From Cereibacter sphaeroides 2.4.1 (lineage in GTDB: Bacteria > Pseudomonadota > Alphaproteobacteria > Rhodobacterales > Rhodobacteraceae): a DNA stretch of 32,000 nucleotides. The stretch is from assembly GCF_000012905.2 (NCBI RefSeq), contig NC_007493.2, forward strand, positions 1,680,001-1,712,000, given 5' to 3'. Positions within the stretch are counted from its first letter, which is position 1; each line of letters begins with the position of its first letter. A program made the position numbers and the translations under genes. Below the pieces are notes generated by a model. It searched no databases and had not been told where the DNA came from. It saw only the letters and a list, made by a program, of their open reading frames with translations. This document shows, piece by piece, positions 8,189 through 26,467 of the stretch.

Positions 8189-8229
8189 TATTGAAATCCT
8201 CGCGAAAAAATTACTCCATTATGTATGAC

Positions 8230-8260: not shown

Positions 8261-8925
8261 TTCTGCAATTACGTTTCCAGCCTTAATTAGATGATCGTTA
8301 TATCGCTTCATATCTGCGATCAACTTCTTATTGCGCTCTTTAGGTGAAAGCTTTGGCTTCAATTCCCTATGGCGGATGAGCAGTGTTTCGAGTTTGGGCA
8401 TCTTATCAACACGGCTTAGGACGGCGGTGTAATAAGCAGTTCGAATATCGTTATCGTATTGCGTTTCTGCTTTCTTCCTTGCTGCCTTCATGAAGATCGA
8501 AAATGTTACCTGATTCAAATTCCAGAATGCATCGGGAGTATTTGGATAGGAAATGAGATAGGTCTCATACAGATCAGCGATTGTTGGCGGGGTTACTTCG
8601 CCTTCTTTCTCCCCGCCTTCGGCTTTCCCGCCTCTGCCGCAGCCTCATCGATATCCTTGTTGATCGAAGCAACCAGATCTTCGAAATAGATGGCCAACAT
8701 TTCCCCTGCTTCTTCTAGGGTCACTTCGGGTTGATTCACCTTGAGACCGCAATAAAGCAGCGTTCGCCATTCAGTTACATTAAGCTGGCCCGATGCCATG
8801 CGGGCCATAACTTCGAGTCCGTTCGATCCCTCAACCATGGACTCGTATTCCGCAAGAGCATTGAAGTTCAAATCAAGCTTCATGCCGTTCTGGAATGTGT
8901 AAATACCTTTGCTATTCGTTTTCAT
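8249..8925 (-). CDS. Tail assembly chaperone G-T-like fusion made by a -1 programmed frameshift (predicted 225 aa)
   Basis: The downstream frame is open from 8644 but has no credible start; the track start at 8518 is a TTG with no RBS. It overlaps the end of the 8593..8925 frame in the -1 register. The extension contains PDAFWNLNQVTF, reminiscent of the rcc01693/phiE125 gp8 family motif P-x-x-F-W-x-L. Confidence 0.7.
8593..8925 (-). CDS. Tail assembly chaperone, G-like product (GTA g10-like family)
   Basis: 110 aa, located between the tail tube and tape measure genes. The pattern LDLNFNALAEYESMV...GQLNVTEWRTLLYCGLK resembles the gene-transfer-agent-family chaperone. Confidence 0.8.
   Translation of the reverse strand: MKTNSKGIYTFQNGMKLDLNFNALAEYESMVEGSNGLEVMARMASGQLNVTEWRTLLYCGLKVNQPEVTLEEAGEMLAIYFEDLVASINKDIDEAAAEAGKPKAGRKKAK
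8623..8629 (-). promoter_or_regulatory. Slippery heptamer G GGA AAG for the -1 ribosomal frameshift
   Basis: The minus strand reads gcg gga aag ccg in the zero frame. It is the same heptamer used by lambda G/GT and lies within the 8596-8644 frame overlap. Confidence 0.7.
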
Positions 8926-9051
8926 TCTTATTCTCCAAGATGTGTTTTTCGTTATTCTCTAGCAGACGATCCACGCTTGCGGATTCAATCTTTAGTCTCT
9001 CAATGTCAGGATGCTTTTCGACCTGACATTCAAGCTCATCGTTATTTATGT

Positions 9052-9537
9052 TCAATGCACCCTCCTAAATTCGCCATGAAGTCTCATCGCTGCAGCTTCC
9101 CGGACTGCAATCGCCGTCTCGATATCATCAAAACGCCCCAAATAGTGATTGACGCCTCCACGACCGATAGAGGCTACGAATTTGTTTCCTGACTTAAAGA
9201 TGCCAGCGTAACCGCTTTTGTTACTCGCATAAATTTTTCTATTCAGATTGTTCTCTTCAACTCTCGCCAGTCGGATATTCGATAGGCGGTTGTCACTCGG
9301 ATCTCCCGAAATGTGATCGATGGTCATACCTTTGGGGATGTCGCCGTAATGCATCTTCCAAATTAGACGATGAGCGTAATAGAGCACCCCATCACAATAG
9401 ACCTGCCAGTAGCCTCGTTTATTGATGCAGCCTGCATGACCTGATTGCCCTTTGCGGATCAGATATCCGGTTTCGGAATCGTATTTGAAAACTTCATTCA
9501 GGCGTTCTTGGCTCGGCAATGGTTTTGATTTAAGCAT
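9052..9537 (-). CDS. Free-standing HNH homing endonuclease with a C-terminal AP2-type DNA-binding domain
   Basis: The HNH_3-like core is YAHRLIWKMHYGDIPKGMTIDHISGDPSDNRLSNIRLA. The AP2-like region is SGYAGIFKSGNKFVASIGRGGVNHYLGRFDDIETAIAVREAAAMRLHGEF. It is inserted between the tail tube and chaperone genes. Confidence 0.85.
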   Translation of the reverse strand: MLKSKPLPSQERLNEVFKYDSETGYLIRKGQSGHAGCINKRGYWQVYCDGVLYYAHRLIWKMHYGDIPKGMTIDHISGDPSDNRLSNIRLARVEENNLNRKIYASNKSGYAGIFKSGNKFVASIGRGGVNHYLGRFDDIETAIAVREAAAMRLHGEFRRVH

Positions 9538-9649
9538 TTTGGTTTCTCCGTTATCTTATTGTTATAAAATATTTAGAAAAACCGAGATTTCCGAATGTGA
9601 TATTTAAGCAACAAATCAGGCCATTTGAGAAATAAAATGCAATTTCGTG

Positions 9650-9677
9650 AAATAAAAAACCCGACCTAAGCCGGGTT
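9650..9677 (-). terminator. Rho-independent terminator after the major tail gene
   Basis: The minus strand reads aacccg-gcttaggt-cgggtt followed by ttttttattt. Confidence 0.6.
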
Positions 9678-9702
9678 CTCTTCGTTATTGATGTTGTCGA
9701 GA

Positions 9703-10122
9703 TTACGGGCCAACCACCAAGGCGTTAATGCTGAAGGTAGCTTCGGCTTCCATCACATCGCCCACAGGGATGTTTCTGGAATATCCCTGCATGAAGCCTG
9801 AATAAGTCGAAACAACTGGACCATCTTCGCCCTTGAGCGTGACGCGAACTTTGACAGTCTCGCCGGAGTCCTGAAGTTCAAGCAAAAGGTCATCAGTTGC
9901 GCTGCCCGGAACATAGTGCATTGCAGCGGTCATGTCTGAAAATTCGCCTAGACCGGGAATGTATTCTTTCTTTCCACTCGGACTTTTCTGATGAGTTACT
10001 TCGATTTTATCGCGCGTAAATTCAGGCAACGTGATATCCGTAACGTAAGCCAATTCGGTCCAAGTCGGAGTAGCGCCGCGACCGATTTCGACCTTAGCAT
10101 CAATTCCAATTGCAATAGTCAT
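9703..10122 (-). CDS. Major tail (tube) protein
   Basis: 139 aa, in the position between the tail completion genes and the chaperones. It is followed by its own terminator, which fits a highly expressed gene. Confidence 0.75.
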   Translation of the reverse strand: MTIAIGIDAKVEIGRGATPTWTELAYVTDITLPEFTRDKIEVTHQKSPSGKKEYIPGLGEFSDMTAAMHYVPGSATDDLLLELQDSGETVKVRVTLKGEDGPVVSTYSGFMQGYSRNIPVGDVMEAEATFSINALVVGP

Positions 10123-10185
10123 TTAAATCCATCCTTCTAAGTTGATACCTTTATGCGGTATGTAGAGGATGGGATTTCGGACCCA

Positions 10186-10554
10186 TTAAGAATGGAAAAC
10201 TCGAAAGTCGATTGAATAACGAAGCACGATATCAGCCGGATTGGAAGTGTCTTCGCCCGATCTAACCTTATCCAGAAGAATTACCTTGATAGGATCATCG
10301 CCGGATTGATCGTTGTAACCGTCCAGAACCATGACCGCATTCTTAATAGTCAAGAGATCGGCCATATCTTCGGCCCAAATATCAACTTGAATCATCGATT
10401 GCCGCAATGGCGTTCTACCTTCCATCGTATGATCCCCTAATTCGGTGATAAGGGATAGCCTGATGTATGGACGCGGTGTATTTGCGGGAGCCCGAATCCA
10501 ATGGACTTCGATGCCGGATGCGTCTGTAATGAGTTGTCGAAGTTGTCTTTCCAT
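10186..10554 (-). CDS. Tail completion/terminator protein (DUF3168-like position)
   Basis: 122 aa. The call rests on synteny in an HK97-like connector set. Confidence 0.55.
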   Translation of the reverse strand: MERQLRQLITDASGIEVHWIRAPANTPRPYIRLSLITELGDHTMEGRTPLRQSMIQVDIWAEDMADLLTIKNAVMVLDGYNDQSGDDPIKVILLDKVRSGEDTSNPADIVLRYSIDFRVFHS

Positions 10555-10559
10555 TGGTC

Positions 10560-11024
10560 TTATCCTTTCGCGGCCTTGGCTCTGGCCCGATCTTGTCGTT
10601 TAATGGCCTTTTGAATTCTTGCGGCCATTTCGTCTTTCAGGATGTTAAGCACATTCTCTTTTTCAGTTTGCCACGCGGGGCGAAGATAGGGTTGAGGGGA
10701 AGTCTCCTCAGTTCCAAACTCTAGCAAATGCCCCTTGGGGGAACCTGCCCCGGCATACATCACAAACGAATGCTTGCCCTCTTTTCGCTCAAGCCTCTTC
10801 TGCGTCTTGTTGAGTTTATCCGTTACGATAATAGAATCGCGAAGATCCCCTTCATCAACCGGGGCGGCAGACTGTGCAGCATCAGCTACCGGCTGCATTG
10901 CTTTCTTCATGGAAGTCTTGATAAGCCGCTTTTGAGTAGCCAACTTTTCGAGGGACATGAGGTTCTTTTCGAGTTCCCGAAACGACTTCTTATCGATCTC
11001 CATACCGGACTTGTTCTTCGCCAT
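10560..11024 (-). CDS. HK97 gp10-family head-tail joining protein
   Basis: 154 aa. It has the characteristic LLEFGTEETSPQPYLRPAW motif region. Its start abuts the stop of the upstream gene. Confidence 0.7.
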   Translation of the reverse strand: MAKNKSGMEIDKKSFRELEKNLMSLEKLATQKRLIKTSMKKAMQPVADAAQSAAPVDEGDLRDSIIVTDKLNKTQKRLERKEGKHSFVMYAGAGSPKGHLLEFGTEETSPQPYLRPAWQTEKENVLNILKDEMAARIQKAIKRQDRARAKAAKG

Positions 11025-14677: not shown

Positions 14678-16264
14678 TTAAGCAAATAGAGCTTTTCGCT
14701 TGGGCTTTGGCTTGTTATCTGGATCAGCAAGCATTCCGGCGAGCATCGCTAACGTAACAGCGCCGTCAATTCGTCTTGTCGAAGTATGCTTGATGAATTT
14801 GCGGTTGTTTGAAGTGTCCGAAACAACTTTCACGTTTGCCATGCACATATTCATGACGGGGTTGTTCCCATGGCGAATTTTGCCATCCAGAATTAAACGC
14901 TCCAACTCGTTAATTCCGATGCCCATAGAAACGAAGCCCTGCCCATAAGAAACCATGTGCTCGTCAATCCATCGCTCATCAAAACCACAATCAATCATGT
15001 CGCGCTTGAAGTATTTTATTTTGTAACGGTCAAAGGCTACCTTCTGGACATTGGCGTTATCCGCAATCTCCTTAAGCTTGGCAGCGACATCCTTATATTG
15101 GATGGTTCTTCCTTGGCTTAAATGGATTAGTCCACCCTTGGCCCAAATGTCATAAGGAACCTTATCACTTCTCGATTTATCCTCTATTCCCTCATCGGGA
15201 AGCCAAAAGAATGGATGAACGTGAAGCAAACCATTCTCGTCTTTATGTGCTAAAGTAAGAGAAGTGAGATCTCGGGTTTCAGATAGATCAAGGCCAAGCC
15301 AAACATCCTTTCCATGCCATTCTTCGGGATTATCCTTGCCTTCATCCCAAACATCTTTTGAAATGAATGGAGCGTTGACTTCGATCCTCTGGTTGAGGGT
15401 GTAGTTGCGGAAATCCGCAGCACGGGCAGGCATCCGTGCGGCCTCGGCCTGCATTTGCTTGAGTTCCTTGCGGTTCACAAAGGAATTCCATGCAGGATGC
15501 GAGACAGCTAGGGCTTCTTCTGAGAACGGATCGATATTCATCGGACACGAATAGAGCTTAAGAACCTTGGTCGGATCTGCCCCGGTTGCGGCGTCATCGA
15601 TCAACTGACTAAGAAGGTCATTGTCAGTCGGAGCCTGCGTAGAGATCACGAGGGTAAGCGGGTTTGCCTGAGCCGCAGTGGCAAGCTCCAAGGCTTCGTA
15701 GAGCGGATCTACTGGCCCTCTCACCTGCCCTAGCTCATCGTGGATCACGAGGCACGGACTCAGCCCTTGAGCCGTTCCAGCATCCTTGGAGAGAGCCCTA
15801 TACTCTGTCCCTAGCTCGGGCACCTTCAGCCGCTTACTAGTCTCCACAATCCGAACAAAACGCGATATACGCGGACTCATCCTGATCATCTTGACTGCCA
15901 GTTTGAACAACTCCGCAGCTTGATCCCTGCTTCGGGCTGCACTGTATAGTTGCGAGTTGGGCAAGGCTTCTCGACCTACCAGATGCAACAGCATCAGAGC
16001 GGCACAGAGCGTTGTCTTCGCAGCCTTACGGGGCATCGAAATAATAGCCCGACGAGTTCCAGCCGGATTGTCATAGATCGAACGAATGATATCCTTCTGA
16101 AAGTCCACAAGCCTGAATGGCTTACCAACGTCCTTACCTTCTGGAATAAACAGGTTCGACTCAATCCACTTGATATTCTTTTCTGCCCTAGACAGTTTCG
16201 GCTTAGGCGGAATGACGGGTTGAGCGGACGAGAGAACGGGTAAAGATTGATCACTCATCGTCAT
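14678..16264 (-). CDS. Terminase large subunit
   Basis: 528 aa. It has a Walker A-like PRKAAKTT and a Walker B-like CLVIHDELGQ, plus a C-terminal nuclease-type region. It overlaps the TerS stop. Confidence 0.92.
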   Translation of the reverse strand: MTMSDQSLPVLSSAQPVIPPKPKLSRAEKNIKWIESNLFIPEGKDVGKPFRLVDFQKDIIRSIYDNPAGTRRAIISMPRKAAKTTLCAALMLLHLVGREALPNSQLYSAARSRDQAAELFKLAVKMIRMSPRISRFVRIVETSKRLKVPELGTEYRALSKDAGTAQGLSPCLVIHDELGQVRGPVDPLYEALELATAAQANPLTLVISTQAPTDNDLLSQLIDDAATGADPTKVLKLYSCPMNIDPFSEEALAVSHPAWNSFVNRKELKQMQAEAARMPARAADFRNYTLNQRIEVNAPFISKDVWDEGKDNPEEWHGKDVWLGLDLSETRDLTSLTLAHKDENGLLHVHPFFWLPDEGIEDKSRSDKVPYDIWAKGGLIHLSQGRTIQYKDVAAKLKEIADNANVQKVAFDRYKIKYFKRDMIDCGFDERWIDEHMVSYGQGFVSMGIGINELERLILDGKIRHGNNPVMNMCMANVKVVSDTSNNRKFIKHTSTRRIDGAVTLAMLAGMLADPDNKPKPKRKALFA

Positions 16265-16637
16265 CTTCCCATGGCTTGAACGAGGAAGCCCTTGCCTCGG
16301 GAGACTCTTTCGATGATCTAAGTGATTGATTGGAAATCCGAAGCTTTGTTGCGAGGGAAGATACCGCCCTATTTTCGCGGTCCAGCATCGCCGTAAGCTT
16401 GTTCAACAGTTTCGAGAATTCGATAATATCGTCAATCTTGCGATTGTCTTTGGCTTCTCTAATGAGACCGGCAACGTAATCAGCTTGGACGACATGACGG
16501 CAGAAAGCCACGAGTGAATCCCGTTGCAGATCCGTAATCCATCCATCTTCCAGACTGTCTAAGATGCGGCACCAAACCTCCAATTCATCATCCGAAAAGT
16601 CATTTGGCGGAATGAGTGTCTTTTTGTTGTTTTCCAT
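16251..16637 (-). CDS. Terminase small subunit (P27-like)
   Basis: I take the start as the ATG at 16637 (MENNKKTLIPPNDFSDDELEVW...). The track start at 16691 is a TTG. Its position upstream of TerL and its helical character fit the P27 family. Confidence 0.7.
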   Translation of the reverse strand: MENNKKTLIPPNDFSDDELEVWCRILDSLEDGWITDLQRDSLVAFCRHVVQADYVAGLIREAKDNRKIDDIIEFSKLLNKLTAMLDRENRAVSSLATKLRISNQSLRSSKESPEARASSFKPWEDDDE

Positions 16638-16894
16638 TATTGTTGATTCCCAAATAGCAATCTCCCGGTATGTAGGGAATTTGGGAGTCAAGCCGCTTAT
16701 CGGGATCTATGGCAAAAAAAGGAAAAAACTGCCCGTTTAAAACTCGTCACTACCATGCGCGGGAACCCTGTGAAAGGGAAAATCGAATCGACCTCCCCCC
16801 GGTCAAAAATGATTCGAAAATGTCAATTGAAATCGGATTTTTCTTTGCCTTCCGATCAAATAAATCTGCGAGAGAATCGTTTGGCAGATTGCGG

Positions 16895-16929
16895 AAAATG
16901 AAAAGACCGGACCTTAATTGATCCGGTCT
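16895..16929 (-). terminator. Rho-independent terminator upstream of the packaging/late operon
   Basis: The minus strand reads agaccgga-tcaattaagg-tccggtct followed by tttcatttt, directly after the stop at 16955. Confidence 0.65.
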
Positions 16930-16954
16930 TGTGCAAATGCTGTTGATGATCAGA

Positions 16955-17319: not shown

Positions 17320-17826
17320 TCATCGCAGTTGGGCAAGTCTCAAATTGTATTTCGCAGTAGCCTGACAGTAGGCTTCATGGGCCTCTTCGGGAGTATCGAA
17401 TATTCCGAGACGCTTCTTCTTCCCATGCCTTGCGACGATTGCAGCAAAGCGATTGCTAACCTTCTCGACTCCCTGTCCATATGGGTTGACATTCATCAGA
17501 CGGTTCAAACTGTTGTCTGAATGTGTAACTGCCCTGAGATTTTCGATCCGGTTATTAAGTCTGTCGCCGTCTTTATGATCGATAACGAGGTTAGAAATAT
17601 CGACGTCTGGATTGTGCATCTTGAAGATGATGCGATGGGCATAGAATAGCGAACCCATCATATGAACCTGTCGATATCCGAGACTCCTGTTAATCGACCC
17701 CGCTGGACGATCCGCACTCTTGCGACTATTATTGAGATTCTTCCAATATATTTGCCCATCTTCATCATAACGAAAAAGCGCATGTAATTTTTCGGATGAT
17801 GGGAGGTCTTTCGTTTTGAATGACAT
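17320..17826 (-). CDS. Second free-standing HNH homing endonuclease with an AP2-type domain, a paralogue of 9052..9537
   Basis: The HNH core is FYAHRIIFKMHNPDVDISNLVIDHKDGDRLNNRIENLRAVTHSDN. The AP2-like region is GVEKVSNRFAAIVARHGKKKRLGIFDTPEEAHEAY. The architecture matches 9052..9537. Confidence 0.85.
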   Translation of the reverse strand: MSFKTKDLPSSEKLHALFRYDEDGQIYWKNLNNSRKSADRPAGSINRSLGYRQVHMMGSLFYAHRIIFKMHNPDVDISNLVIDHKDGDRLNNRIENLRAVTHSDNSLNRLMNVNPYGQGVEKVSNRFAAIVARHGKKKRLGIFDTPEEAHEAYCQATAKYNLRLAQLR

Positions 17827-17907: not shown

Positions 17908-18294
17908 TTAGAGGCTGAATGACTTAGGCTTGAAGTATTCTCGATTACGCTCGGATATTACTTGTTTCCAATCCATTTCCGGGATTGGCCAGCCGGTATC
18001 ATAATCAATGATAGGATCAAATCCGATTAGCCCGTTACTCTCACGTTGCGTTTTCGATCTATGGCAGTCCTTACAAAGCATCCAGAGATTGCTTAGATCA
18101 TCCGTTCCACCACTGTTGACGTTTTGAAGATGGTCGCAGTCTGAGGCCAAGACGATCCTGCCTGTAAGCATGAAACAGCGGACGCATATTCCTTGATCTC
18201 GATTGCGGACGATATCCCGGTTCTTCCGGTAAGCCGCAGTCACCTTGCGCTTTGAACTACTCCAATTGGATTGCTTGCGGTTTGTCATCGCCAT
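17908..18294 (-). CDS. Terminase-associated HNH endonuclease (HK97 gp74-like role)
   Basis: 128 aa containing CVRC...CDHLQNVNSGGTDDLSNLWMLCKDCHRSKT. It lies upstream of TerS/TerL, as in cos-type HK97-like phages. Confidence 0.85.
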   Translation of the reverse strand: MAMTNRKQSNWSSSKRKVTAAYRKNRDIVRNRDQGICVRCFMLTGRIVLASDCDHLQNVNSGGTDDLSNLWMLCKDCHRSKTQRESNGLIGFDPIIDYDTGWPIPEMDWKQVISERNREYFKPKSFSL

Positions 18295-18649
18295 TAGTCA
18301 TAATCGGAAGATGTGTTGCGGTGATCTTGTTCGCGGAAATCGGTCCATCAATGATATTTGGTCCGCGCGGGTTGATGTGGTCGTTGATGCGCGCCAGCAC
18401 GTCGGCCAGATAGGCCTGTGGGTCGAGGCCGCTCAGTTTCGCGCTCTCAGCCTCATCGTCTAGGAGAGTGTTCAACGCTTCCCCTACTGCATCGGCTGGT
18501 GTTGGATGAATGGTTGAATACCGAACGCCATTGGCCATCGCTATCCAACCAGACTCACAATAACAAATCAGGAATTCGCCTTTTGTAATCTCGCGAACCT
18601 CTCTCATGAGATCCGCAAGATGGTGTTGATCGATCTTATCGGGTTGCAT
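18257..18649 (-). CDS. Hypothetical protein carrying an IS66-transposase C-terminal-like segment
   Basis: 130 aa. Residues ~69-96 (AKLSGLDPQAYLADVLARINDHINPRG) resemble the conserved C-terminus of IS66-family transposases. That segment coincides with a local GC-rich patch. Confidence 0.5.
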   Translation of the reverse strand: MQPDKIDQHHLADLMREVREITKGEFLICYCESGWIAMANGVRYSTIHPTPADAVGEALNTLLDDEAESAKLSGLDPQAYLADVLARINDHINPRGPNIIDGPISANKITATHLPIMTNGDDKPQAIQLE

Positions 18650-19097: not shown

Positions 19098-19133
19098 TGT
19101 TTTTTTCCCTGTGTGTTGGTGTTGTTATTATTT

Positions 19134-19274
19134 TCAGATGAGAAGGATTAGGGCGATGTAAGCTTTGTGGGCGAACATGAAGGCCCATGAGGCAGCTAAT
19201 AGAGCCTCGATAGGATTTGCCGTTGCCTTGTCCGAGATTGAGCGTGTGACTGTTTCAATAAGACTGGATGGCAT
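19134..19274 (-). CDS. Possible 46-aa small protein with a hydrophobic C-terminus (below the track cutoff)
   Basis: My own translation is MPSSLIETVTRSISDKATANPIEALLAASWAFMFAHKAYIALILLI. GAAGGA lies 6 nt upstream of the ATG at 19274. Confidence 0.3.
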   Translation of the reverse strand: MPSSLIETVTRSISDKATANPIEALLAASWAFMFAHKAYIALILLI

Positions 19275-19500
19275 GGCAAATCCTTCGGTTAATGGTTACT
19301 GTTACGAAAATGAGGGAAGCGCCATTACGCCTGCATTATGAAATGGCTTATGACTTCGGCGGCGATAAACGCCTTTCGCTTTCCTCATGAATGTATTTAG
19401 TAATCCGAGGATGCCGAAATTGTCGTTTCAGACGTTCGGATGGAAATTTATTTGAGGAAATGAATTGATGTTGCGTAATGGCAACAATGTGCAATGGGGA

Positions 19501-19542
19501 CAAAAAGAAGCCGGGTCTTACGGATTCATCATCCTGCCCGGC
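19501..19542 (-). terminator. Rho-independent terminator of the DUF2971-like gene
   Basis: The minus strand reads gccggg...(inner ggat/atcc stem)...cccggc followed by ttcttttt. Confidence 0.6.
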
Positions 19543-19619
19543 CAGTCACACACGGAGATTCCGATTGACGCAATGCTAAAACATCAACCGTGCTTTATTT
19601 AGGGGATCGGAAATTTGAG

Positions 19620-20552
19620 TTAGCGCCTAAGAGGGATTTCAGATACCTTCACTCGGAGTTGAGGGTTGTGATAGTGCTCGCTTGTCATAACCTGAATGAG
19701 CGCATCACTTATAACGTCGGGAAATGCCGTTGGTCCGACGATAATGTGATCCAAAATGTCGTTAAGGTTCAACGCGGAGTTGGCTCCATCTAGATTGAGG
19801 AGATAGACCTTCTGAGGGACTCCGCCAACCGAGGCGACCATACATGGAAGCTTGTTGTATGGGGTAGGACGGTGAATCACACGCCATTCCTGCTCCTCTT
19901 CGAATCCGGGATGTTTCGTGCTGAGAACTGCGGCATCCAGAGCACCAAAGAGATATGCTAGCGATAAGTCCTTATTCCCCTTCAATAGCTCAATATTTTC
20001 GGCAATGGATTCCATAACCTCCATGAATTCTCTACGGAACATGAAAGCGTCTGCGTAAAGAACCGGACTTAGTGTCGTGGCCGTGCTGTGATCGTTGAGC
20101 ACTTTTTCCCGATCAAATACCATAGCAACATTGGTGTTTCCACCATACGCTCGCCACATGGAGAGACGTCCAAGCTTATCCTCGCTAATAGCTCCGCCAT
20201 TAGGTCCATGCTCACTCAAGCATGTCAGGTAGGTATCATGCAAATCGGTAGGCATTGCATAACGGATCATGATGCTGTTGAATGCTGTCGGGTGGATCTC
20301 GTTAACAAGGTTCGCAAATTGCTTTCCGACCGTATCAGAGTCCAAAACCTTTAGGAGACAATTCAGGCCATGTTCAATTTCATTGAAATCATTCATCACG
20401 GATGCATTCCGCAACCACACTGACTTGTTCTTCAATATCGAGACGGCGACTTCTGCACTTGTGTAATGTGCAAATTTCCTATCGTTATCACGGATTTTTT
20501 GCACCCGCTTATTATAATTGGGATAGAATATCTCTTGAATGTTCTTAGACAT
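19620..20552 (-). CDS. DUF2971-like protein (310 aa)
   Basis: I take the start as the ATG at 20552 (MSKNIQEIF...), which has GGAAG upstream. Recalled family motifs are present: FAHYTSAEVAVSILKNKSVWLRNASVMNDFNE, LSMWRAYGGNTNVAMVFD and KHPGFEEEQEWRVI. Confidence 0.75.
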   Translation of the reverse strand: MSKNIQEIFYPNYNKRVQKIRDNDRKFAHYTSAEVAVSILKNKSVWLRNASVMNDFNEIEHGLNCLLKVLDSDTVGKQFANLVNEIHPTAFNSIMIRYAMPTDLHDTYLTCLSEHGPNGGAISEDKLGRLSMWRAYGGNTNVAMVFDREKVLNDHSTATTLSPVLYADAFMFRREFMEVMESIAENIELLKGNKDLSLAYLFGALDAAVLSTKHPGFEEEQEWRVIHRPTPYNKLPCMVASVGGVPQKVYLLNLDGANSALNLNDILDHIIVGPTAFPDVISDALIQVMTSEHYHNPQLRVKVSEIPLRR

Positions 20553-20635
20553 GGCTGCTTCCGGCTGCGGTTGATGGTCCCTTCTGCTTCGCAAGGGCGA
20601 GGGCCAGCGGTCAAGCGTCAAGGGGCCTGTGAGGC

Positions 20636-20820
20636 ACTATGCGGCGGCGGCGGGGCACGGAACTGGCGTGGGGGGACGAGCGGAACGAGGGGGGCAAAGG
20701 ATTGGCGGAATGAGGGACGAGGGAACGAAGCGCAAGCGAAGTGACTGAGGATCGAATGCAGACGTTGACCGAATGAAGAAACGGAGCGGAACGCGGAGTG
20801 ACTGAATGAAAGGCAACGAT
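20636..20820 (+). other. Strand-asymmetric purine tract
   Basis: A hand count gives 133 of 180 nt as purines on the plus strand at 20641-20820, and T is rare. GGAACG, GAATG and AGTGACTGA recur, with about 11 GGA triplets and several G4-6 runs. Confidence 0.8.
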
Positions 20821-20830
20821 GTATCAATCA

Positions 20831-21431
20831 TGAGATCGGAACATGAGTCTGCTCTCGAATAGAGGTTGAGATCAGGATTTAAGACAAAGTAAACATTTTT
20901 GGTATTCTTAAGTGATTGATTTTATTGAATAAATCAAGGGTGTCATATGGATTTGTTTTTCTTAAGAAAATCGTTTAAGTGATTGATTTTATTGATTTAT
21001 TAAGAAATGGATGAATCGAGATTTGATGTTCATGGTTCTTGAATGGGTATTCCATCAATGAACATGACGAGAAGTGCATTTTGGCGTAAGTGAGCGAAGC
21101 GAACGGAACGCCACCTTTAATCCACATAGAGGTTTTGAGATCAGGAAAGGAGTCTTCTTTCAGATAAAGGTTTGAGATCAGGAAAGGAGTCTTCTTTCAC
21201 ATAGAGGTTTTGAGATCGGATAAACCTTTAATCCACATAGAGGTTTTGAGATCGGATAAACTGCATCGAATAAGGGTCACCATAAGCAATCTGGCCGCAG
21301 GCCGCGCGAAGCGCCAATGGAATCGTTTATCCAATAGAGATTTGGACTCATACAGATCGGATAAATGATCTATGCTCAGATAGAGATTTTGAGATATCAA
21401 ATTTCATCAGATAAAGGTATTTTGGATCTTC
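20831..21431 (+). repeat. Iteron-like repeat family with core ATAGAGGTTTTGAGATC
   Basis: Copies start near 20858, 21123, 21161, 21198, 21234, 21332, 21377 and 21408. Four tandem units at 21123-21263 have a 36-38 bp period. In those units the inter-core segments are pairwise duplicated: aggaaaggagtcttcttt twice and ggataaac twice. Confidence 0.85.
20908..20995 (+). repeat. Two perfect 21-bp direct repeats in an AT-rich segment
   Basis: ttaagtgattgattttattga occurs at 20908-20928 and 20975-20995. The first copy also forms the inverted repeat ttgattt-N8-aaatcaa. Confidence 0.9.
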
Positions 21432-21504
21432 AAACTTCCTTTCTCTAACTCAGATCTCATCTGGACCTTATAGTTAAGATTCTGATTATAGCTCTATTTC
21501 TATA

Positions 21505-21525
21505 GGGGGACGAAACCCCCATTTT
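21505..21525 (+). terminator. Short GC hairpin plus T-run (terminator-like, plus strand)
   Basis: ggggg-acgaaa-ccccc is followed by attttc. The stem is only 5 bp, so this is weak. Confidence 0.3.
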
Positions 21526-21526
21526 C

Positions 21527-21623
21527 GTGGTGACGATCCCGGTGACGATGTGGTGACGATCCCGGTGACGATGTGGTGACGAAACCCAACCATAAGTTGT
21601 ATGGTGACGATGTGGTGACGAAA
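21527..21623 (+). repeat. Array of seven GGTGACGA octamers
   Basis: Octamers start at 21529, 21541, 21552, 21564, 21575, 21603 and 21614. The spacings are 12, 11, 12, 11, 28 and 11 bp. The 23-bp unit gtggtgacgatcccggtgacgat is exactly duplicated. Confidence 0.9.
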
Positions 21624-22097
21624 CCTCAATCCTCCTCTCCTCTATCCGAGCAACCATACAGCCTCGATTTTCATCCTTATCCATCAACGCCTTCGATGCC
21701 ATTTACGAAATTCCGAAATCCATACTGTCGAAAAGTAGAAGTGCGAGCGAAGAAACACTTCATCTGAGCATCGTTCCATTGCGACTATCCCACTCGAATC
21801 CTTTACTTACGCATTCACATTCGTTATGTGCGGCATCGGCCTTACGTCGGTATGAATTCGATGTTGCTATTTTGCAACGCCAATCCGAGAAATGAAAAAA
21901 TTCATGATCGGACGCCCGATTTTGGGCAGTCGGATTCCTATATACTTCGTCAAAGGTTGAGAGACTTTCGATTGTTATTTTTGCTTTGTGAAGGGATGGG
22001 GAAGTCATGAGCCTCATCCCGACACTACCGAAAAGCAATAACAATCCCCTCACAAATTGGAGACAGCAAAAATGATTTAATACGAAGAGGACTCCCT

Positions 22098-23216
22098 ATG
22101 TGCAACAGCAAATTCCCATTATTAGATACGTTGCTTCGCTGCCGTTACTGCGGCATTCAGCTTGAGGCGACGACAAACGGTCGGCAGCGCAAGTTTTGCT
22201 GCGATAGCCACCGCAAGATGTTCAATAAACGCCAATCAACATCGTCGCTAGCAAAGCTTTATAAGGCTCTTGCAACCGAATTTTTCTCCATCAACAACGC
22301 CCATGATCGGCAAACTCAAATAGAAGAATGGGGCATCAAATACGCTTACTGGTGCAATGGCGAAATGCCTTCATTCTTCAAAACGAAGGAAGCTCTTCTA
22401 AACTCATTCATTCCACGAGATAAAGTTTGGAACGAGGAAGGTAAGAACATCAATGTTAGGCTTGTCGCCCATCTTCGCGAGAAGGTTCCGAATAAACAGA
22501 TCTACGACCGTCTAGCAGTTGTTCGCGCGTTCGGTCTTGAACCGTCTGCATCGCTTCTGGCAGAGCAAGACGCCACTGAGACCCCTGCCCCATCCAAGCC
22601 CGTAGAACGGTCACAGAAGCCCTCTGATCCTGCCAGCCTCATCCATGCTCCGAAGCCCGCAAAGCCCGTCCAGCCCGCTCCTGTAGAGGCTGACGAGGAT
22701 GCAGAGCTTCTAGCTGCTTTCTCGGAATTTTTCGGCGATGACTCTGACCGTAAGGAACCGGCTCCGGTAGCCTGCGAAGAAACTCGTCCTGCGCCGATCA
22801 AGATCAATCCGTCCTACGCCGCCTGTGTGAAGATGTCGTTCGACAAGATCGGAGACATTCGCGAGGATTTCTTGTTTCGCAAATTCGAGGAGTATGATTA
22901 TCCGCTGAAAGCCACTCTATCCGCAATGGTCGAAGAAGGATCAATCATTAAGACGAAGAAAGCCGAAGGAGTATTCTATCGTATCGCCAACAACGAAGCG
23001 AACGAGAAAGCCGATTTTTGGGCTGAATGCCTTCGTTATGCCAAAGGCGACATGACTAAGGCGAGGGCTTCTTTTAGAAACGTTTTCGATCTTTGGCCGT
23101 CAAAGGAAATTCAAGAAACTTCAGTGGATTTGTCCATTGAACCAAGTGTTGCGAACGTCAGGCGGATTGAAGAAGGGCGCAAGCGGTATTTTGACGAAAA
23201 GAAGAAGGCTGCGTAA
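22098..23216 (+). CDS. Zinc-ribbon (FCS/TRASH-like) protein with a Pro/acidic linker and a winged-helix-like C-terminal region; candidate DNA-binding regulator or initiator
   Basis: 372 aa, with AGAGGA 6 nt upstream of the ATG. The N-terminus has CRYC-x17-CCDSH. The linker is PAPSKPVERSQKPSDPASLIHAPKPAKPVQPAPVEADEDAE. The C-terminus has DYPLKATLSAMVEEGSIIKTKKAEGVFYRI. Confidence 0.75.
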   Translation: MCNSKFPLLDTLLRCRYCGIQLEATTNGRQRKFCCDSHRKMFNKRQSTSSLAKLYKALATEFFSINNAHDRQTQIEEWGIKYAYWCNGEMPSFFKTKEALLNSFIPRDKVWNEEGKNINVRLVAHLREKVPNKQIYDRLAVVRAFGLEPSASLLAEQDATETPAPSKPVERSQKPSDPASLIHAPKPAKPVQPAPVEADEDAELLAAFSEFFGDDSDRKEPAPVACEETRPAPIKINPSYAACVKMSFDKIGDIREDFLFRKFEEYDYPLKATLSAMVEEGSIIKTKKAEGVFYRIANNEANEKADFWAECLRYAKGDMTKARASFRNVFDLWPSKEIQETSVDLSIEPSVANVRRIEEGRKRYFDEKKKAA

Positions 23217-23217
23217 C

Positions 23218-23523
23218 ATGCAAATCAAAATCATCGGCCCATCGATGGGACCGACGTTACCGGAAGGCTCAGTTCACGACGTCAACTTAACCGATCAATT
23301 CGGGCTAGGTGATATAATCGTCTTCCCCGATCCGAAGGACAGTTCCCGCCTTCTAGTCAAACGACTTCTGCGGAGCGAAGATAAAGGGCTATTCGTCATT
23401 GGGGATAACGTGAGAAACAGCCGAGATAGTCGCCATTTTGGCTTGATCGATCCGGCATCAGTTATCGGGAAAATCGAAATTTGCCGGTTTCCAAAATTCG
23501 TTAATTCAACCTCAACCAAATAA
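23218..23523 (+). CDS. Anchorless S26 (signal peptidase I-like) serine peptidase, 101 aa
   Basis: The ATG is 1 nt after the upstream TAA. All S26 boxes are present: GPSMGPTL (Ser), GDIIVF, VKRL (Lys) and GDNVRNSRDSRHFG. There is no N-terminal hydrophobic anchor. Confidence 0.8.
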   Translation: MQIKIIGPSMGPTLPEGSVHDVNLTDQFGLGDIIVFPDPKDSSRLLVKRLLRSEDKGLFVIGDNVRNSRDSRHFGLIDPASVIGKIEICRFPKFVNSTSTK

Positions 23524-23586
23524 CACTTGCCAATCCGAAACAATGGAGCAATATATCCACTCATTAGAATCACACGGAGATTATCA

Positions 23587-23997
23587 ATGCTTAAATCAAT
23601 GACCCTCGCCATCTTCCTTGCCCTCGCCTCTACTTCGGCTCATGCGTTCCCGTTCCAATCTGAGACAATCGATTGTTCGAGCGAAGAAGCATTCAAGCAA
23701 TCTTTTGAGCGCATTGCCGAGAATGAGAGCAAAGTTGATACTACGGCAATCCTCTTCGGCACGATTCAAATGCTGTATGCGAACCTGCCGCCCGAACGTC
23801 GTGCCCGTCTATACGAAGGTGGAGGGCCAGTTGACAATCCGTTTCTAAATGTTGCTCAATCCCTCGAATATGCGTATGAGACCGATTTTCATCTGTCGCT
23901 TTCAGACGTGAAGGAATACGTCCGCGAGAATGGGCTTACCGAAATGGCTGCTCAGTGGATTGCCGAAAGGGAAGCCGAAGAAGCGAAGAAAGAGTGA
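23587..23997 (+). CDS. Secreted/periplasmic protein of unknown function with a Sec signal peptide
   Basis: I take the start at 23587 (MLKSMTLAIFLALASTSAHA|FPF), with GGAG 7 nt upstream. It has an A-X-A cleavage motif, and the mature part is helical and acidic. Confidence 0.7.
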   Translation: MLKSMTLAIFLALASTSAHAFPFQSETIDCSSEEAFKQSFERIAENESKVDTTAILFGTIQMLYANLPPERRARLYEGGGPVDNPFLNVAQSLEYAYETDFHLSLSDVKEYVRENGLTEMAAQWIAEREAEEAKKE

Positions 23998-24011
23998 CTA
24001 AATCAAAAAGA

Positions 24012-24045
24012 CAAAGCCCCCGGCAATCGCTAGGGGCTTCTTTCA
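24012..24045. terminator. Bidirectional terminator between convergent genes
   Basis: aagcccc-cggcaatcgcta-ggggctt is flanked by an A-run upstream and a T-run downstream. Confidence 0.7.
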
Positions 24046-24060
24046 TTGTTCGGCAGTTGA

Positions 24061-24456
24061 TCAGTCTTTGTTGATCAACAGGTCTTCCATGTTGCCCCCC
24101 GCTTCAAGGTGAGCCTCCACCCACTTCGGTTTTCGTCCGCGTCCCGACCAAGTTTCCGAAGGGTTCTCCGGGTGCCGGTATTTCGGCGCTACAGGCTCGC
24201 GTTCTCCATCCTTGGACTTGCGGTTGTAACTCCGTTTCCCCGTCCCTTCCGACTTCGGCAGCATATCGCCGAAGAGATCCACGAGGTTGAAGCCCGACGA
24301 CTCCACGAGTTCCTTGATCTTGTCCTTAGCAGCTTGCTTTTCGCGAGCTTCATTGGCCCTAAGAGCTTCTTCGACATTCGCCCTCAGTTTGAGCAAATCA
24401 CCGCGCGGAACGTCAACGAGGTCTTCAAGGGTCGGCAGTCCGGTAGTCTTAGCCAT
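24061..24456 (-). CDS. H-NS / HvrA-family nucleoid-associated protein
   Basis: I take the start as the ATG at 24456 (MAKTTGLPTLEDL...), with AGGA upstream. It has an N-terminal coiled coil. The C-terminus carries the signature KYRHPENPSETWSGRGRKPKWVEAHLEAG. Confidence 0.9.
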   Translation of the reverse strand: MAKTTGLPTLEDLVDVPRGDLLKLRANVEEALRANEAREKQAAKDKIKELVESSGFNLVDLFGDMLPKSEGTGKRSYNRKSKDGEREPVAPKYRHPENPSETWSGRGRKPKWVEAHLEAGGNMEDLLINKD

Positions 24457-24510: not shown

Positions 24511-26259
24511 TCAATCGCTTTCGTATTCGTAGGCCGATCCCTCAACTCGTCTCGTCTTTTCACCCGCATAAACACTCACTCGAATATCATCAGGATTACT
24601 AGGATTCGGGACTACCGTCTGCACCGCACCATTGCGGAAAGTTACGATGAAGTAAGGATCATCCTTCAACCGTGATCCCGCATTCATTGCCGCAATGATC
24701 TTTTCGGCATCAGGATCTCCCGAAGCGCGCACAAGATCAATCGCCGGATCATCTTTGCGGATTTCACCATTCGGATAGACGTCAATGCGCTCAATGATCG
24801 ATTTGATACGATCCGCAAGCCTAATACGATTTTCCCCGCATGGATTTTGGAACGTCGAAATCAGGGATGCTAGTTCCTCGTCGGTCACGTTATCCGACTT
24901 GATCTTCGAAAGAGCATCATTCGATTCCTCGATAGATCGAACAAGATCATCCTTCTCGGCTTTCAATTCCCGAATGCGCTCCATGAAGATTTCCGCAAGA
25001 TCGGGAGCACCTTCGATCTTGATCAGATAATCCCGAATTCTCTCATCTGCCTTTCTAACTTTCTCTTCATTGACCGTTATCCGATCCGCAATCGTCTTTG
25101 CTTCGGACTTGCGCTTTGCACCTTCCAGAAGTCCCCTCAAATCAACATCCCGAACAAATGTCAGGAAGGAGCGTTCGAAGGCAGCGTAAGGGAGAGGTTT
25201 GCAATCGCATCCCGGACCATTAAAGCGGTTGAAGCATGTCAGGTAACGATGCGGAGGATTGCCCTTTACCCGTGATCCTTTCGACCGATGGCGCATCTTT
25301 GATCCGCAATAGCCGCAGAAAGCAACATGGGTGAAGATGTTCGATTGACCCTCTCCCCTTCTTCCCCCGGCAAGCAACCGCCCTCTCAGCGATGCTTGAA
25401 CAATGTCGAAAAGCTCTTCCTCGATTACGGGAGGGAAATATCCCGGAATAGGATCACCAGCCGGTTGACGCTTTCCACTGACATACTGCCCCGGCTGAAA
25501 TTCCCCGAGGACTGCACGATTGCGAAGCGTCTTGGAGACGAAAGCTTCGGCCCACAAAGCGCCCCTTCCGAATGTCGGAACCTTGTCGCGATTCAGTTCT
25601 TTGGTGATGAGGTTCGCACCTTTACCCGATGCCGAAGCTTCGAAGATGCGTTGAACGATTTTGGCCCGTTCCTTATCGATCAGGTAAGACTTGCGATCAA
25701 CGGACAGCTTAAGCCATGCAGGGCATTGACTCGACATTTTGACGCCATGTTCGGCAGCAAGCTTCCGCTTCTGCGACCAGTTGGCGAGACCACGAGTCGA
25801 TTTGATCTTAGACTCGTCATTGGACCGGATCATTACTGAAATGGCGTAGTAAATGCTTCCAACCTGATCTGACGATCCATCGTAAACCTGCCCATCCGAC
25901 AGGGTAACGATCTTCACCCCGGTCTTGAGAATGCGAGCAAACAGGGAAAATGCATCAAGGATCTTGTCTCGACTCAAACGGTCAAGGCTTTCGATGAGAA
26001 GGAACGATCCTGCCTCAATCTCTCCCGCCTCACACTCGGCAACAAATCGTCCGAGAGCCCCGGTAGTCAGGTTGTCCGACTTGAAGGCAGAGACCCCGAG
26101 ATCGGCAAGCTTGTAGTCATCGATAAGGTCAAGATCATGTTCGGCGGCATACTTCGCGGAAGCTTCTGCCTGCCGTCTAAATGAGTCCCCTTTGATCTGG
26201 ATAGCCGAGGACATACGAATGTAGCTGTATGCCTTCGGTCGGCTTGCTGGATTGGTCAT
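24511..26259 (-). CDS. Large serine recombinase (phage integrase)
   Basis: 582 aa. The resolvase-type N-terminus is [12 protein letters not shown]...GDSFRRQ. It also has a recombinase domain, a zinc ribbon (FCGYCGSKM...[15 protein letters not shown]) and a long coiled coil. It is the last gene before the GC shift. Confidence 0.93.
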
Positions 26260-26289
26260 GGCTCGGCCTCATCGTCTCTGATGGGGTCA

Positions 26290-26315
26290 CAATACCAATC
26301 ATGTTCAAGAAGATG
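26290..26315. other. Approximate prophage-host attachment junction (attL or attR)
   Basis: The loss of pirin similarity and the compositional switch coincide here. The exact crossover dinucleotide cannot be determined without attB/attP. Confidence 0.5.
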
Positions 26316-26467
26316 AAGGGGCCCACCATCTGCCTCCGGGCCGAGGGCAGCGCGCGGCGCACCTCGAAACCGCCGAGATCGCGGGCGCGCGGCACGATGA
26401 CGGTCTCGATGGCGTCGACGGCATCGCCGAGGGGGATGTCGGGGTCGAGGGCGGGGTTCCAGCTCAT
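26306..26467 (-). pseudogene. N-terminal fragment (~54 codons) of a host pirin-family gene, truncated by prophage insertion
   Basis: [53 protein letters not shown] matches the pirin N-terminus as I recall it. Similarity and high GC both end at ~26305, where the frame continues into AT-rich phage DNA ([11 protein letters not shown]...). Confidence 0.75.

Follow-up and report, generated by a model that had tools for sequence, protein, structure and literature searches.

Iteron-type theta origins lie next to the gene of their initiator, as in lambda ori with O, P1 oriR with RepA, and the Rep_3 plasmids F, pSC101, and R6K. Winged-helix or ribbon-helix-helix proteins can polymerize on direct repeats with one site per helical turn, and such arrays are known from the PhoB/OmpR boxes, P2 Cox, 186 Apl, TubR–tubC (7 × 12 bp), and ParR–parC (10 × 11 bp). 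Furthermore, plasmid rep genes can be preceded by leaders that combine a stem-loop with a leader peptide, as in CopT/tap/repA of R1 and RNAI/repY/repZ of IncI-alpha and IncB. Here, we analyzed a 32 kb stretch from chromosome 1 of the heavily used model organism Cereibacter (Rhodobacter) sphaeroides 2.4.1. The whole stretch is referred to as the window, and all positions are those of the window unless a relative is named. It carries a prophage with a previously undescribed non-coding block of 1.5–2 kb, located at 20553–22097 between the DUF2971 gene RSP_6250 and the gene RSP_7542, which encodes a 372-residue protein. Sequence comparisons support the interpretation that this block is a functional, conserved control region, in which a repeat array changes together with the adjacent protein. 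Our tentative reading, held at slightly less than even confidence, is that an iteron-type replication origin is coupled here to the regulated leader of its initiator gene, RSP_7542. In the literature searched, the prophage, its locus tags, and the small RNAs in it appear only in tables of transposon sequencing (Tn-seq) and RNA-seq studies, and RSP_7542, RSP_7541, RSP_7543, and RSP_6250 are not mentioned in the papers.

No other inter-gene gap of the prophage reaches the 1545 bp of this interval. Those next in size measure 522 bp (19098–19619), 263 bp (16692–16954), 165 bp, and 126 bp, and the rest are shorter than 100 bp. The original prediction, which was made from the sequence of the window, described a gene-free, repeat-dense block of about 1.5 kb in a tightly packed prophage, and both parts of this description hold: the counts of the array unit and of the 37-bp repeat core were not reached in any of 100 shuffles. 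It also held that no real open reading frame (ORF) exists in the interval. In agreement, tblastn between the blocks produced matches in all frames and on both strands of the same DNA, and no frame is kept in the four relatives described below. Coding sequence was accordingly rejected, as the conservation resides at the nucleotide level and not at the protein level; the 23-bp period of the array is not a multiple of three. Among the relatives compared, none carries an intact gene across the interval, which had been named beforehand as the observation that would count against the block. The edges of the gap stand as originally drawn, but its left 90 bp or so (20553–20640) belong to the insertion of the DUF2971 gene. 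GANTC sites occur at 6.5 per kb in the block versus 3.6 per kb, and CtrA (TTAA-N7-TTAA) and alphaproteobacterial LexA (GTTC-N7-GTTC) boxes are absent. The features of the block are listed in Table 1.

Four further versions of the block were identified, which makes five with that of strain 2.4.1. L001 is of the C. sphaeroides type and encodes a protein 98% identical to RSP_7542. L002 is a Logan contig with a different gene context (56% identity), and L003 is a C. changlensis prophage next to guaA (38% identity). L055, from another C. sphaeroides strain, was found by scanning metagenome contigs for the leader motif and is a mosaic with a replaced protein. The versions share one module order, consisting of a purine-rich minisatellite, an AT-rich stretch, the family-A repeats, GC hairpins, a G/C hairpin followed by TTTTCG, array B, a spacer of approximately 320 bp, and the leader. 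This order is kept with adjacent proteins of 98%, 56%, and 38% identity and in the mosaic. Between the window and L001, the segment 21133–21625 contains zero differences, while the flanks differ by several percent. In L001, the region without called genes spans approximately 1.95 kb, or 1.8 kb if a 46-residue small ORF described below is real.

The RSP_7542 family is very rare, with two clusters among 5.8 billion proteins; when 1.84 billion representatives were searched with a profile, P0003 and a 93-residue zinc-ribbon protein were the only additions, for a total of three to four clusters. The 372-residue protein itself (AGY32418.1; CP015287.1, 1,702,080–1,703,198, with the block at approximately 1,700,535–1,702,079) is also present in many other assemblies of the species. 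Neither the block nor RSP_7542 matched the phage and plasmid collections by blastn or tblastn. The hairpin pattern found nothing in viral (IMG/VR), GTDB representative genome, and JGI metagenome contigs, and the twin-hairpin pattern, scanned in viral contigs only, likewise found nothing. A protein-pattern scan of the GTDB representative genomes returned 30 candidates, none of which was confirmed. The motif of the 5′ untranslated region gave three chance matches without stems in viral contigs and 58 matches in metagenome contigs, of which only L055 was real. Two short Logan assemblies from the runs SRR515922 and SRR515923, L008 (equivalent to 21553–24430) and L009 (equivalent to 21896–23239), each differ from the window by a 1-nt indel. 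They cover only RSP_7542 and its leader and, in L008, also downstream genes; they are possibly transcript or enrichment assemblies and were not used as evidence.

The module that changes with the protein is array B. Its unit, GGTGACGA, occurs nine times in the window versus 0.93 expected, a number reached in 0 of 100 shuffles. The unit and the family-A core are found nowhere else in the prophage, which points to a single cis locus and not to a set of dispersed operators. The window and L001 share the unit GTGACGA, whereas L002 has GCGTCGA and L003 has GCGACGA; the units always lie on the same strand, with a period of 11–12 bp (11 bp in L002 and L003). In L055, array B is replaced by five units of 19–21 bp, CCTGTTTTTGTCCGATAAAC. 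The left part of the L055 block matches 20647–21260 at 84%, and L055 7465–7780 matches 21631–21946 at 93%. The array segment and the protein have thus both been replaced, while the 316-bp spacer between them remains 93% identical. Overall, four array types pair with four protein types, in line with the predicted link between the block and the adjacent protein. Since the array unit changes with the adjacent protein, we infer that the RSP_7542 protein binds at the units of array B. The family-A repeats remain unchanged when the protein is swapped, and a different factor would therefore have to read them.

Immediately left of array B, the window, L001, L002, and L003 share the motif TATA(A)GGGG-N3-GAAACCCC-NN-TTTTCG. 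Its G5/C5 stem never varies, so the terminator-like hairpin yields no covariation evidence. A candidate leftward promoter is present on the minus strand. A distance of 16 bp separates its perfect TATAAT from the degenerate array unit GGGACGA (21507–21513), which occupies the −35 position. A TATAAT is also found immediately left of the unrelated array in L055, and the corresponding sequence is TAGAGT in L002 and poor in L003. The presence of a minus-strand TATAAT next to two unrelated array types makes a leftward promoter controlled from the array plausible.

The second repeat family lies further to the left. For family A, TRF reported a period of 37 bp with 3.5 copies at 21123–21253. Degenerate or outlying plus-strand copies are present at 20829/20863, 21334, 21380, 21416, and 21954, and an inverted copy is located at 21753–21776. 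The 16-mer core has five matches versus 0.26 expected, again reached in 0 of 100 shuffles. In C. sphaeroides the unit contains AGGTTTTGAGATC and is found seven times in L055; its lineage-specific counterparts are GGTGAAG (L002) and CATGAGG (L003), some copies being inverted. Two family-A copies (21118 and 21229) include a near-DnaA box, TAATCCACA, with 8 of 9 positions, and the DnaA-box core ATCCACA occurs twice in the block versus once in the other 24.4 kb. The core of the box preceding the family, CGAACGGAACGC, does not vary among the window, L001, and L002 and also occurs in L055. The twin mini-hairpins that follow are kept in L002, with a GCA loop in the second, and are absent in L003, while L055 has other small GC hairpins instead (GGC[GAAA]GCC and AAGCC[CGCA]GGCTT). 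A long-range RNA helix (21367–21390 with 21753–21776; L002 9177–9218 with 9685–9726) at first looked covarying but was rejected, because inverted copies of the lineage-specific family-A motif explain the complementarity better.

The candidate DNA-unwinding element contains, at 20909–21010, the most AT-rich 100 bp (78%) and the least stable 80 bp of the whole prophage, as judged from composition and nearest-neighbor values. This minimum lies approximately 500 bp from array B. The candidate element includes a perfect 21-bp direct repeat (20908–20928 and 20975–20995) and tandem 13-mers, TTAAG-N8, at 20962–20987. Tandem 13-mers are also present in L002, in which the TTTGTTTTTCTTAAG-N8-TTTAAG block of this segment is conserved. 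No segment differs more between the window and L001 than the adjoining purine-rich tract, and its minisatellites differ in every lineage (15-mers in L001; the 9-mer GCGGAAGCT in four copies in L002). The tract had been described as purine-only, which is incorrect: its 191 nt comprise A57 G81 C33 T20, so that purines make up 72% and T 10%, and no uninterrupted purine run exceeds 10 nt. The DUF2971 gene and its flank are absent in L001, where 8410–8545 matches 19468–19602 of the window and then passes straight into the purine-rich tract. L055 carries a DUF2971 gene of 52% identity plus approximately 400 bp with a 135-residue ORF (L055 5031–6481). Judging from these alignments, the left edge of the tract (the site of 19620–20552) is a hot spot for accessory genes. 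At this position L003 carries about 9 kb of unrelated cargo, including genes for 789- and 439-residue proteins. PADLOC returned no match for the DUF2971 protein or the L003 cargo genes.

To the right of array B, the spacer leads to the leader of RSP_7542. In the L002 spacer (9651–9714), the segments ACTTCACC, GGTGAAGT, and ACTTCACC allow two mutually exclusive hairpins, with a folding z-score of −2.1. The window and L003 spacers lack hairpins of this type and give z-scores of about +0.9 to +1.0. The candidate promoter region of RSP_7542 aligns with GACTTATCCACAGGCC-N-CTACATAC of L002 and L003. In these two versions, which share GACTTATCCACAGGCC, a perfect DnaA box (TTATCCACA) occupies the −35 position of a plausible promoter, and the window has diverged there.

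The leader contains an RNA hairpin of three tiers, in which the outer helix GCUUU/AAAGC is followed by an invariant GUG/CAC, a small internal loop, and a 9-bp stem, GGGAUGGGG/CCUCAUCCC (9–10 bp across the versions). RNAfold predicts the same fold in the five loci, with z-scores of −2.6 to −5.35. In two alignments, 95% of the cells are paired versus 31–53% in slid controls. Compensatory changes are observed in seven or eight pairs, and the main measures are matched by 0–1 of 500 shuffles. The G·U pairs fit only the plus strand, and the hairpin therefore belongs to the sense transcript. Rfam 15, the scan proposed by the original prediction, returned 0 matches at gathering thresholds for the whole window and 0 at E ≤ 1 for 20400–22300. 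The leader hairpin is thus a well-supported candidate for a new cis-regulatory RNA, as judged from its covariation. Its loop is AGUAGCUA in the other four versions and forms part of the palindrome GUAGCUAC. The loop of strain 2.4.1 (22002–22011) is AAGUCAUGAG, unlike even that of the 98%-identical L001, and may represent a regulatory variant or a defect. Downstream of the hairpin, a start–stop mini upstream ORF (mini-uORF) precedes the main Shine–Dalgarno sequence and the start codon of RSP_7542. It ends 17 nt before the main start in the window and 17–23 nt across the window, L001, L002, and L003. Its equivalents are TTG TAG in L002 (approximately 9955–9975) and ATG TAA in L003 (approximately 9955–9985), with a conserved AGGAG, so that the frame is either a start–stop or a 2-codon ORF; L055 lacks it. 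The leader contains no recognizable antisense promoter or terminator.

RSP_7542 starts with an FCS-type zinc ribbon and a conserved helical domain, which a Pro/Ala/Lys linker joins to a variable C-terminal domain predicted to be a winged helix. Against Pfam, the protein has no significant family and gives only faint zinc-ribbon matches. Its AlphaFold2 model is poor overall (predicted local distance difference test score, pLDDT, of 48), although residues 238–296 in the C-domain, its one confidently folded element, adopt a helix–helix–helix–strand–strand order with block-mean pLDDT values of approximately 63–80. Foldseek returned only generic winged-helix matches with E values of at least 0.14. 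Identity to the L002 and L003 proteins amounts to 75% and 56% in the N-domain, versus 41% and 23% in the C-domain. The replaced protein of L055 is a 294-residue orphan, of which only the N-terminal zinc-ribbon domain is remotely alignable (hhalign E = 0.004).

The early region was originally described as unrecognizable. This holds for primase, helicase, partition, and classical cI/Cro genes, none of which is recognizable in any gene of the element of about 26 kb. It does not hold for RSP_7543, which matches Peptidase_S26 (E = 1.5e-15) and, weakly, a CI-like PHROG (E = 1.9e-6). RSP_7543 is 73% identical in L055 despite the swapped upstream protein, and no HTH_3, CI, or Cro gene is present in the element. 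The RSP_7543 protein could be the SOS-sensing part of a switch. The other early proteins, including the 153-residue RSP_7541, are also orphans, and the early region consists of orphan genes and the block.

Published Tn-seq data (PMC5513736 Table S1) bear on the role of these genes. RSP_7542 contains 63 insertion sites, corresponding to a density of 0.070. The 306-bp RSP_7543 is under-represented, with 3.5 sites and a density of 0.014 (nominal p = 7e-4). The H-NS-family gene RSP_0002 (spbB) has a density of 0.245, a 4–5-fold over-representation, and the integrase gene has a density of 0.098, while RSP_2989–RSP_2991 and RSP_6250 are low (0.011–0.028). This pattern suggests either silencing of the AT-rich prophage or a fitness gain on loss of spbB. 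Since RSP_7542 tolerates insertions, the lysogen can do without it. This speaks against a lysogeny repressor and is as expected for a lytic-phase function. The block had been put forward as a replication origin or an immunity/control center. The Tn-seq data speak against the immunity part of this proposal for RSP_7542, and a control center is kept plausible by the candidate leftward promoter. In addition, the sites of array B are direct repeats and not the dyads of a CI/Cro-type immunity region.

Considering these findings together, we favor, with the caution stated at the outset, an iteron-type origin joined to the regulated leader of RSP_7542. In such an origin, RSP_7542 would bind the seven GGTGACGA units of array B head-to-tail, one per helical turn, through its variable C-terminal winged-helix domain. 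The conserved N-terminal zinc-ribbon domain would recruit host replication proteins, because the phage encodes no recognizable helicase or primase. DNA opening would occur at the AT-rich segment close by, where the phage DNA is least stable, and the family-A 37-bp repeats and DnaA-box-like sites would assist, read by a factor that is unchanged upon the protein swap. The supply of initiator would be limited post-transcriptionally by the three-tier hairpin and the start–stop mini-uORF in the leader of approximately 140 nt. All of these steps are inferred, from binding of the protein and unwinding of the DNA to recruitment of host factors, the positions of the promoters, and replication as such. 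The block does contain helix-phased repeats on the same strand, an adjacent AT-rich segment that should melt easily (by composition only), and a repeat type matched to the adjacent gene (by correlation). The origin reading also fits the protein size, the domain logic, the portability of the module, with L002 lying in a different context, and the dispensability of RSP_7542 in the lysogen. The size of the proteins (294–385 residues) and their two-domain layout are closer to those of lambda O or P1 RepA than to those of small late activators. With more reserve, the block and RSP_7542 may constitute an undescribed type of phage replicon. It would comprise an orphan initiator family, in which a zinc-ribbon N-domain is combined with a winged-helix C-domain that can be swapped; it would work without a helicase or primase of the phage, with an initiator dosage set by a new cis-regulatory RNA (the hairpin with the GUAGCUAC loop and the mini-ORF). 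Its two-tier origin would combine protein-specific one-per-turn repeats with a second family that stays constant when the protein is swapped.

Several observations weigh against an origin. RSP_7542 has no match to a known initiator family in Pfam, PHROGs, PADLOC, PDB sequences, and the phage and plasmid collections (tblastn), and the model of its winged helix is of low confidence. The prophage is not known to be inducible, which also tempers the Tn-seq argument against a repressor. The DnaA-like boxes of the window are imperfect and lie inside repeats, and the enrichment of GANTC is weak. The co-variation of array and protein is a correlation without statistics across only three or four independent lineages. 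Array B is separated from the gene by approximately 480 bp and from the AT-rich segment by approximately 500 bp, a looser arrangement than in classical origins. Finally, the minus-strand TATAAT fits promoter control at least as well.

This last point leads to the main alternative, which is possible but doubtful and not mutually exclusive with an origin. RSP_7542 would be the master early regulator, and array B would provide the upstream sites of a leftward lytic promoter with its −10 at the TATAAT (21490–21485) and an array unit at −35, in a mode similar to the PhoB/OmpR boxes or the P2 Cox and 186 Apl arrays. The long transcript of this promoter would run through the repeats into RSP_7541 and the HNH, terminase, and structural genes. 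The spacing of 16 bp to the degenerate unit, the position of the other units at approximately −55 to −140, the TATAAT just left of the unrelated array in L055, and the location of the block between divergent transcription units all speak for such a switch, as does the co-variation of the array with the RSP_7542-type protein. Winged-helix proteins are known to bind tandem direct repeats with one protein per helical turn, and dispensability in the lysogen fits an activator. However, the −10 element is poorly kept in L002 and L003, and a simple sigma-70 scan did not report the TATAAT site. Five to eight units on the same strand would be many for an activator. Moreover, a switch would leave the phage without a candidate origin or initiator, and the family-A repeats, the AT-rich minimum, and the DnaA-type boxes would be unexplained. 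A long structured non-coding RNA had also been offered as an alternative, in which the block would be transcribed rightward as one or more long RNAs, or as a long leader ending at 21505–21527, and would act by RNA structure or as RNA-based immunity similar to the P4 CI RNA or P1 c4. The conserved terminator-like hairpin on the plus strand only, the covarying leader of RSP_7542, the mutually exclusive hairpins in the L002 spacer, and the lack of a recognizable CI-type repressor are consistent with it. However, covarying structure is confined to the leader hairpin of approximately 55 nt. The direct repeats of the repeat-dense left and center vary in number and sequence between lineages, which is typical of protein sites and not of folded RNA, and the apparent long-range complementarity has another explanation. 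RNAalifold over the hairpin and the array gives a positive covariation term of +4.23, with many predicted pairs broken in L002, and shuffled sequences fold as well as the spacers of the window and L003. Together with the empty Rfam scans, these results make an RNA locus improbable.

The phased units of array B, arranged as 5 + 2 at 11–12 bp, resemble the tubC and parC arrays, and a centromere-binding winged-helix protein, AspA, is among the weak Foldseek matches. Array B might be a centromere with a winged-helix adaptor, as in TubR–tubC or ParR–parC, or a site for the small terminase subunit (pac/cos). In HK97-like phages, the cos site usually lies upstream of terS, beside HNH genes. In the present element, the block is located about 4 kb from terS, while a separate gap of 263 bp (16692–16954) occupies the usual cos position. 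The array co-varies with RSP_7542 and not with terS, which is 97% identical in L001. No ParA-, ParM-, or TubZ-type nucleoside triphosphatase is found in any gene of the element, and an integrating prophage needs no centromere. A packaging or partition site is therefore quite improbable. Decayed coding sequence or a functionless repeat expansion is the least probable explanation of all, and the comparative data have largely refuted it. It would account for the purine-rich tract, a fast-evolving minisatellite, and for a site that accepts gene insertions such as DUF2971 and the extra ORF of L055. The absence of a gene here in any relative, the translated matches in all frames, and the identity of 21133–21625 between the window and L001 while the flanks diverge do not fit decay. 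The same applies to a module order kept to relatives with a protein of only 38% identity and to the compensatory changes in the leader RNA.

Table 1. Coordinates of the block modules and of selected prophage genes in the window
Feature	Position	Strand	Description
terS	16251–16691		Small terminase gene; 97% identical in L001
Upstream flank of RSP_6250	20553–20639		GC-rich; part of the DUF2971 gene insertion, outside the conserved block
Purine-rich tract	20640–20830	+	Hypervariable, T-poor, many GGA/CGGAA motifs
AT-rich segment	20880–21010		Candidate DNA-unwinding element
Conserved box	21083–21112	+	GGCGTAAGTGAGCGAAGCGAACGGAACGCC
Family A	21113–21260	+	Direct repeats of about 37 bp (CACATAGAGGTTTTGAGATC...)
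Twin GC mini-hairpins	21293–21314	+	GGCC[GCA]GGCC and GCGC[GAA]GCGC
Candidate leftward −10	21485–21490	−	Perfect TATAAT
G5/C5 hairpin	21505–21527	+	Followed by ATTTTCG; terminator-like on the plus strand only (terminator scan)
Array B	21529–21621	+	Seven GGTGACGA units (5 + 2); spacings 12, 11, 12, 11, 28, and 11 bp
Spacer	21631–21946	+	Conserved, from array B to the RSP_7542 promoter region; holds the inverted family-A copy
Candidate RSP_7542 promoter	21925–21962	+	−10-like TATACT at about 21945–21950; conserved AGGTTGAGA box at 21954–21962
Leader hairpin	21983–22036	+	Three-tier RNA hairpin
Shine–Dalgarno and mini-uORF	22059–22080	+	GGAG at 22059–22062; ATG ATT TAA at 22072–22080
RSP_7542	22098–23216	+	372 residues; candidate initiator or regulator
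RSP_7543	23218–23523	+	101 residues; S24/S26 autopeptidase-type domain, DNA-binding domain lacking; its start follows the RSP_7542 stop by 1 nt
RSP_0002	24061–24456		spbB, H-NS family, prophage-encoded, chromosome 1
RSP_0003	24511–26214		Serine integrase
RSP_0004	26177–26467		Annotated pseudogene at the integrase end; faint Pirin N-terminal match (E = 0.15)

The surrounding element reads as a temperate siphophage-type prophage with an early cis-acting control region at the block. It spans approximately 26 kb, from RSP_2989 to RSP_0003, with a GC content of about 48% versus 68% in the host, and is probably inserted in a pirin gene next to guaA. According to PMC5513736 Table S1, the locus tags run from RSP_2989 onward to RSP_7541 and RSP_6250, then the block, and continue to its right with RSP_7542, RSP_7543, RSP_7544, RSP_0002, RSP_0003, RSP_0004, and RSP_0005. 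RSP_2989 encodes 110 residues and lies just past a gene for a 1205-residue tail protein; it is followed by the host pirin gene RSP_2988, which is located beyond the left edge of the window. At the other end, RSP_0004 is followed by the host gene guaA (RSP_0005). The pirin gene is thus probably interrupted by the prophage, as suggested by the pirin gene at one end and the faint pirin match at the other, in which case the attB site of the serine integrase would lie inside pirin. The prophage of C. changlensis likewise adjoins guaA. The structural module is HK97-like, with TerL, portal, S78 protease, and capsid genes, and TerL shares 53% identity with its counterpart in Klebsiella phage ST16-OXA48phi5.3. 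A search for tRNA and tmRNA genes found nothing.

Several further observations concern the neighboring genes. The non-coding gap of 263 bp noted above lies directly upstream of terS and downstream of HNH genes. Genes of the HNH and HNH_3/AP2 homing-endonuclease type are scattered over the element (9052–9537, 17320–17826, and 17908–18294), one of them inside the tail module. L055 has extra HNH-type copies at 8837–9241 and 9508–10569, right after the swapped 294-residue gene, and these extra homing-endonuclease genes may have helped the exchange of modules. RSP_6249 (18257–18649; 130 residues) gives a short but significant match to the IS66 C-terminal element (PF13817, E = 5e-9), with no transposase around it. 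The 522-bp gap contains an unannotated 46-residue ORF on the minus strand (19134–19274; MPSSLIETVTRSISDKATANPIEALLAASWAFMFAHKAYIALILLI) with a hydrophobic C-terminal tail, which is kept in frame in L001 (approximately 8081–8224; MPVSLSDAVRNSISENAKRDPIKTLLAATWAFLFTQKAFVALVMLI) despite many amino-acid changes. From this conservation, it is probably a real small tail-anchored membrane protein that gene callers missed.

If the origin reading is correct, RSP_7542 would represent a new initiator family, and the block would be part of a compact, host-dependent replicon. Its window-type and L055-type specificity variants could then serve as compatible vectors for Rhodobacterales. Independently of an origin, the leader hairpin is a candidate for a new cis-regulatory RNA, and the start–stop mini-ORF offers a testable case of translational control. 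The joint swap of array and protein around a conserved spacer constitutes a natural experiment for mapping DNA-recognition specificity.

The comparison with known systems reveals partial resemblance to each of them. As in iteron origins, tandem same-strand, helix-phased repeats lie near an AT-rich segment and DnaA-type boxes, and a candidate initiator gene is adjacent. As with lambdoid O proteins and their iterons, the repeat sequence and the DNA-binding domain change together, and the module is portable. In contrast to iteron systems, RSP_7542 has no detectable homology to O, RepA, TrfA, or pi and starts with a zinc ribbon. Its presumed sites are cores of 7–8 bp at intervals of 11–12 bp (20–21 bp in L055), unlike iterons of 17–22 bp. 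Two repeat families are present, and the array lies approximately 480 bp from the gene, neither inside the gene nor over its promoter. The likeness to the PhoB/OmpR, Cox/Apl, TubR, and ParR arrays lies in a 7-bp core with a spacer of 4–5 bp, a single orientation, five to eight units, and a predicted winged-helix protein alongside. As with Cox/Apl and PhoB, the array abuts a promoter, if the TATAAT at 21490–21485 is one. However, RSP_7542 shows neither sequence similarity nor confident structural similarity to PhoB, Cox, Apl, TubR, or ParR and has no partner nucleoside triphosphatase. It is also three to five times larger than Cox, Apl, TubR, and ParR and has an extra conserved N-domain.

Similar to the R1, IncI-alpha, and IncB leaders, that of RSP_7542 combines a stable hairpin with a conserved loop, followed by a Shine–Dalgarno sequence and a tiny ORF before the main start. 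It differs from them in that no antisense promoter or terminator was identified and the mini-ORF ends 17–23 nt before the start without overlap. The loop is palindromic (GUAGCUAC) and differs in strain 2.4.1, and L055 lacks the mini-ORF. Finally, the element is AT-richer than its host and encodes its own H-NS-family protein, RSP_0002, which invites comparison with prophage-encoded xenogeneic silencers such as CgpS of the Corynebacterium CGP3 prophage (PMC5137423). A silencer of this kind could take the place of a classical CI repressor, and the block would then need no immunity gene. CgpS is described as essential (PMC5137423), whereas RSP_0002 is not essential in the Tn-seq data. Overall, we rate the orphan protein family and the candidate cis-regulatory RNA as new, while the functional type, be it an iteron origin or a one-per-turn array, is already known from the systems compared here.

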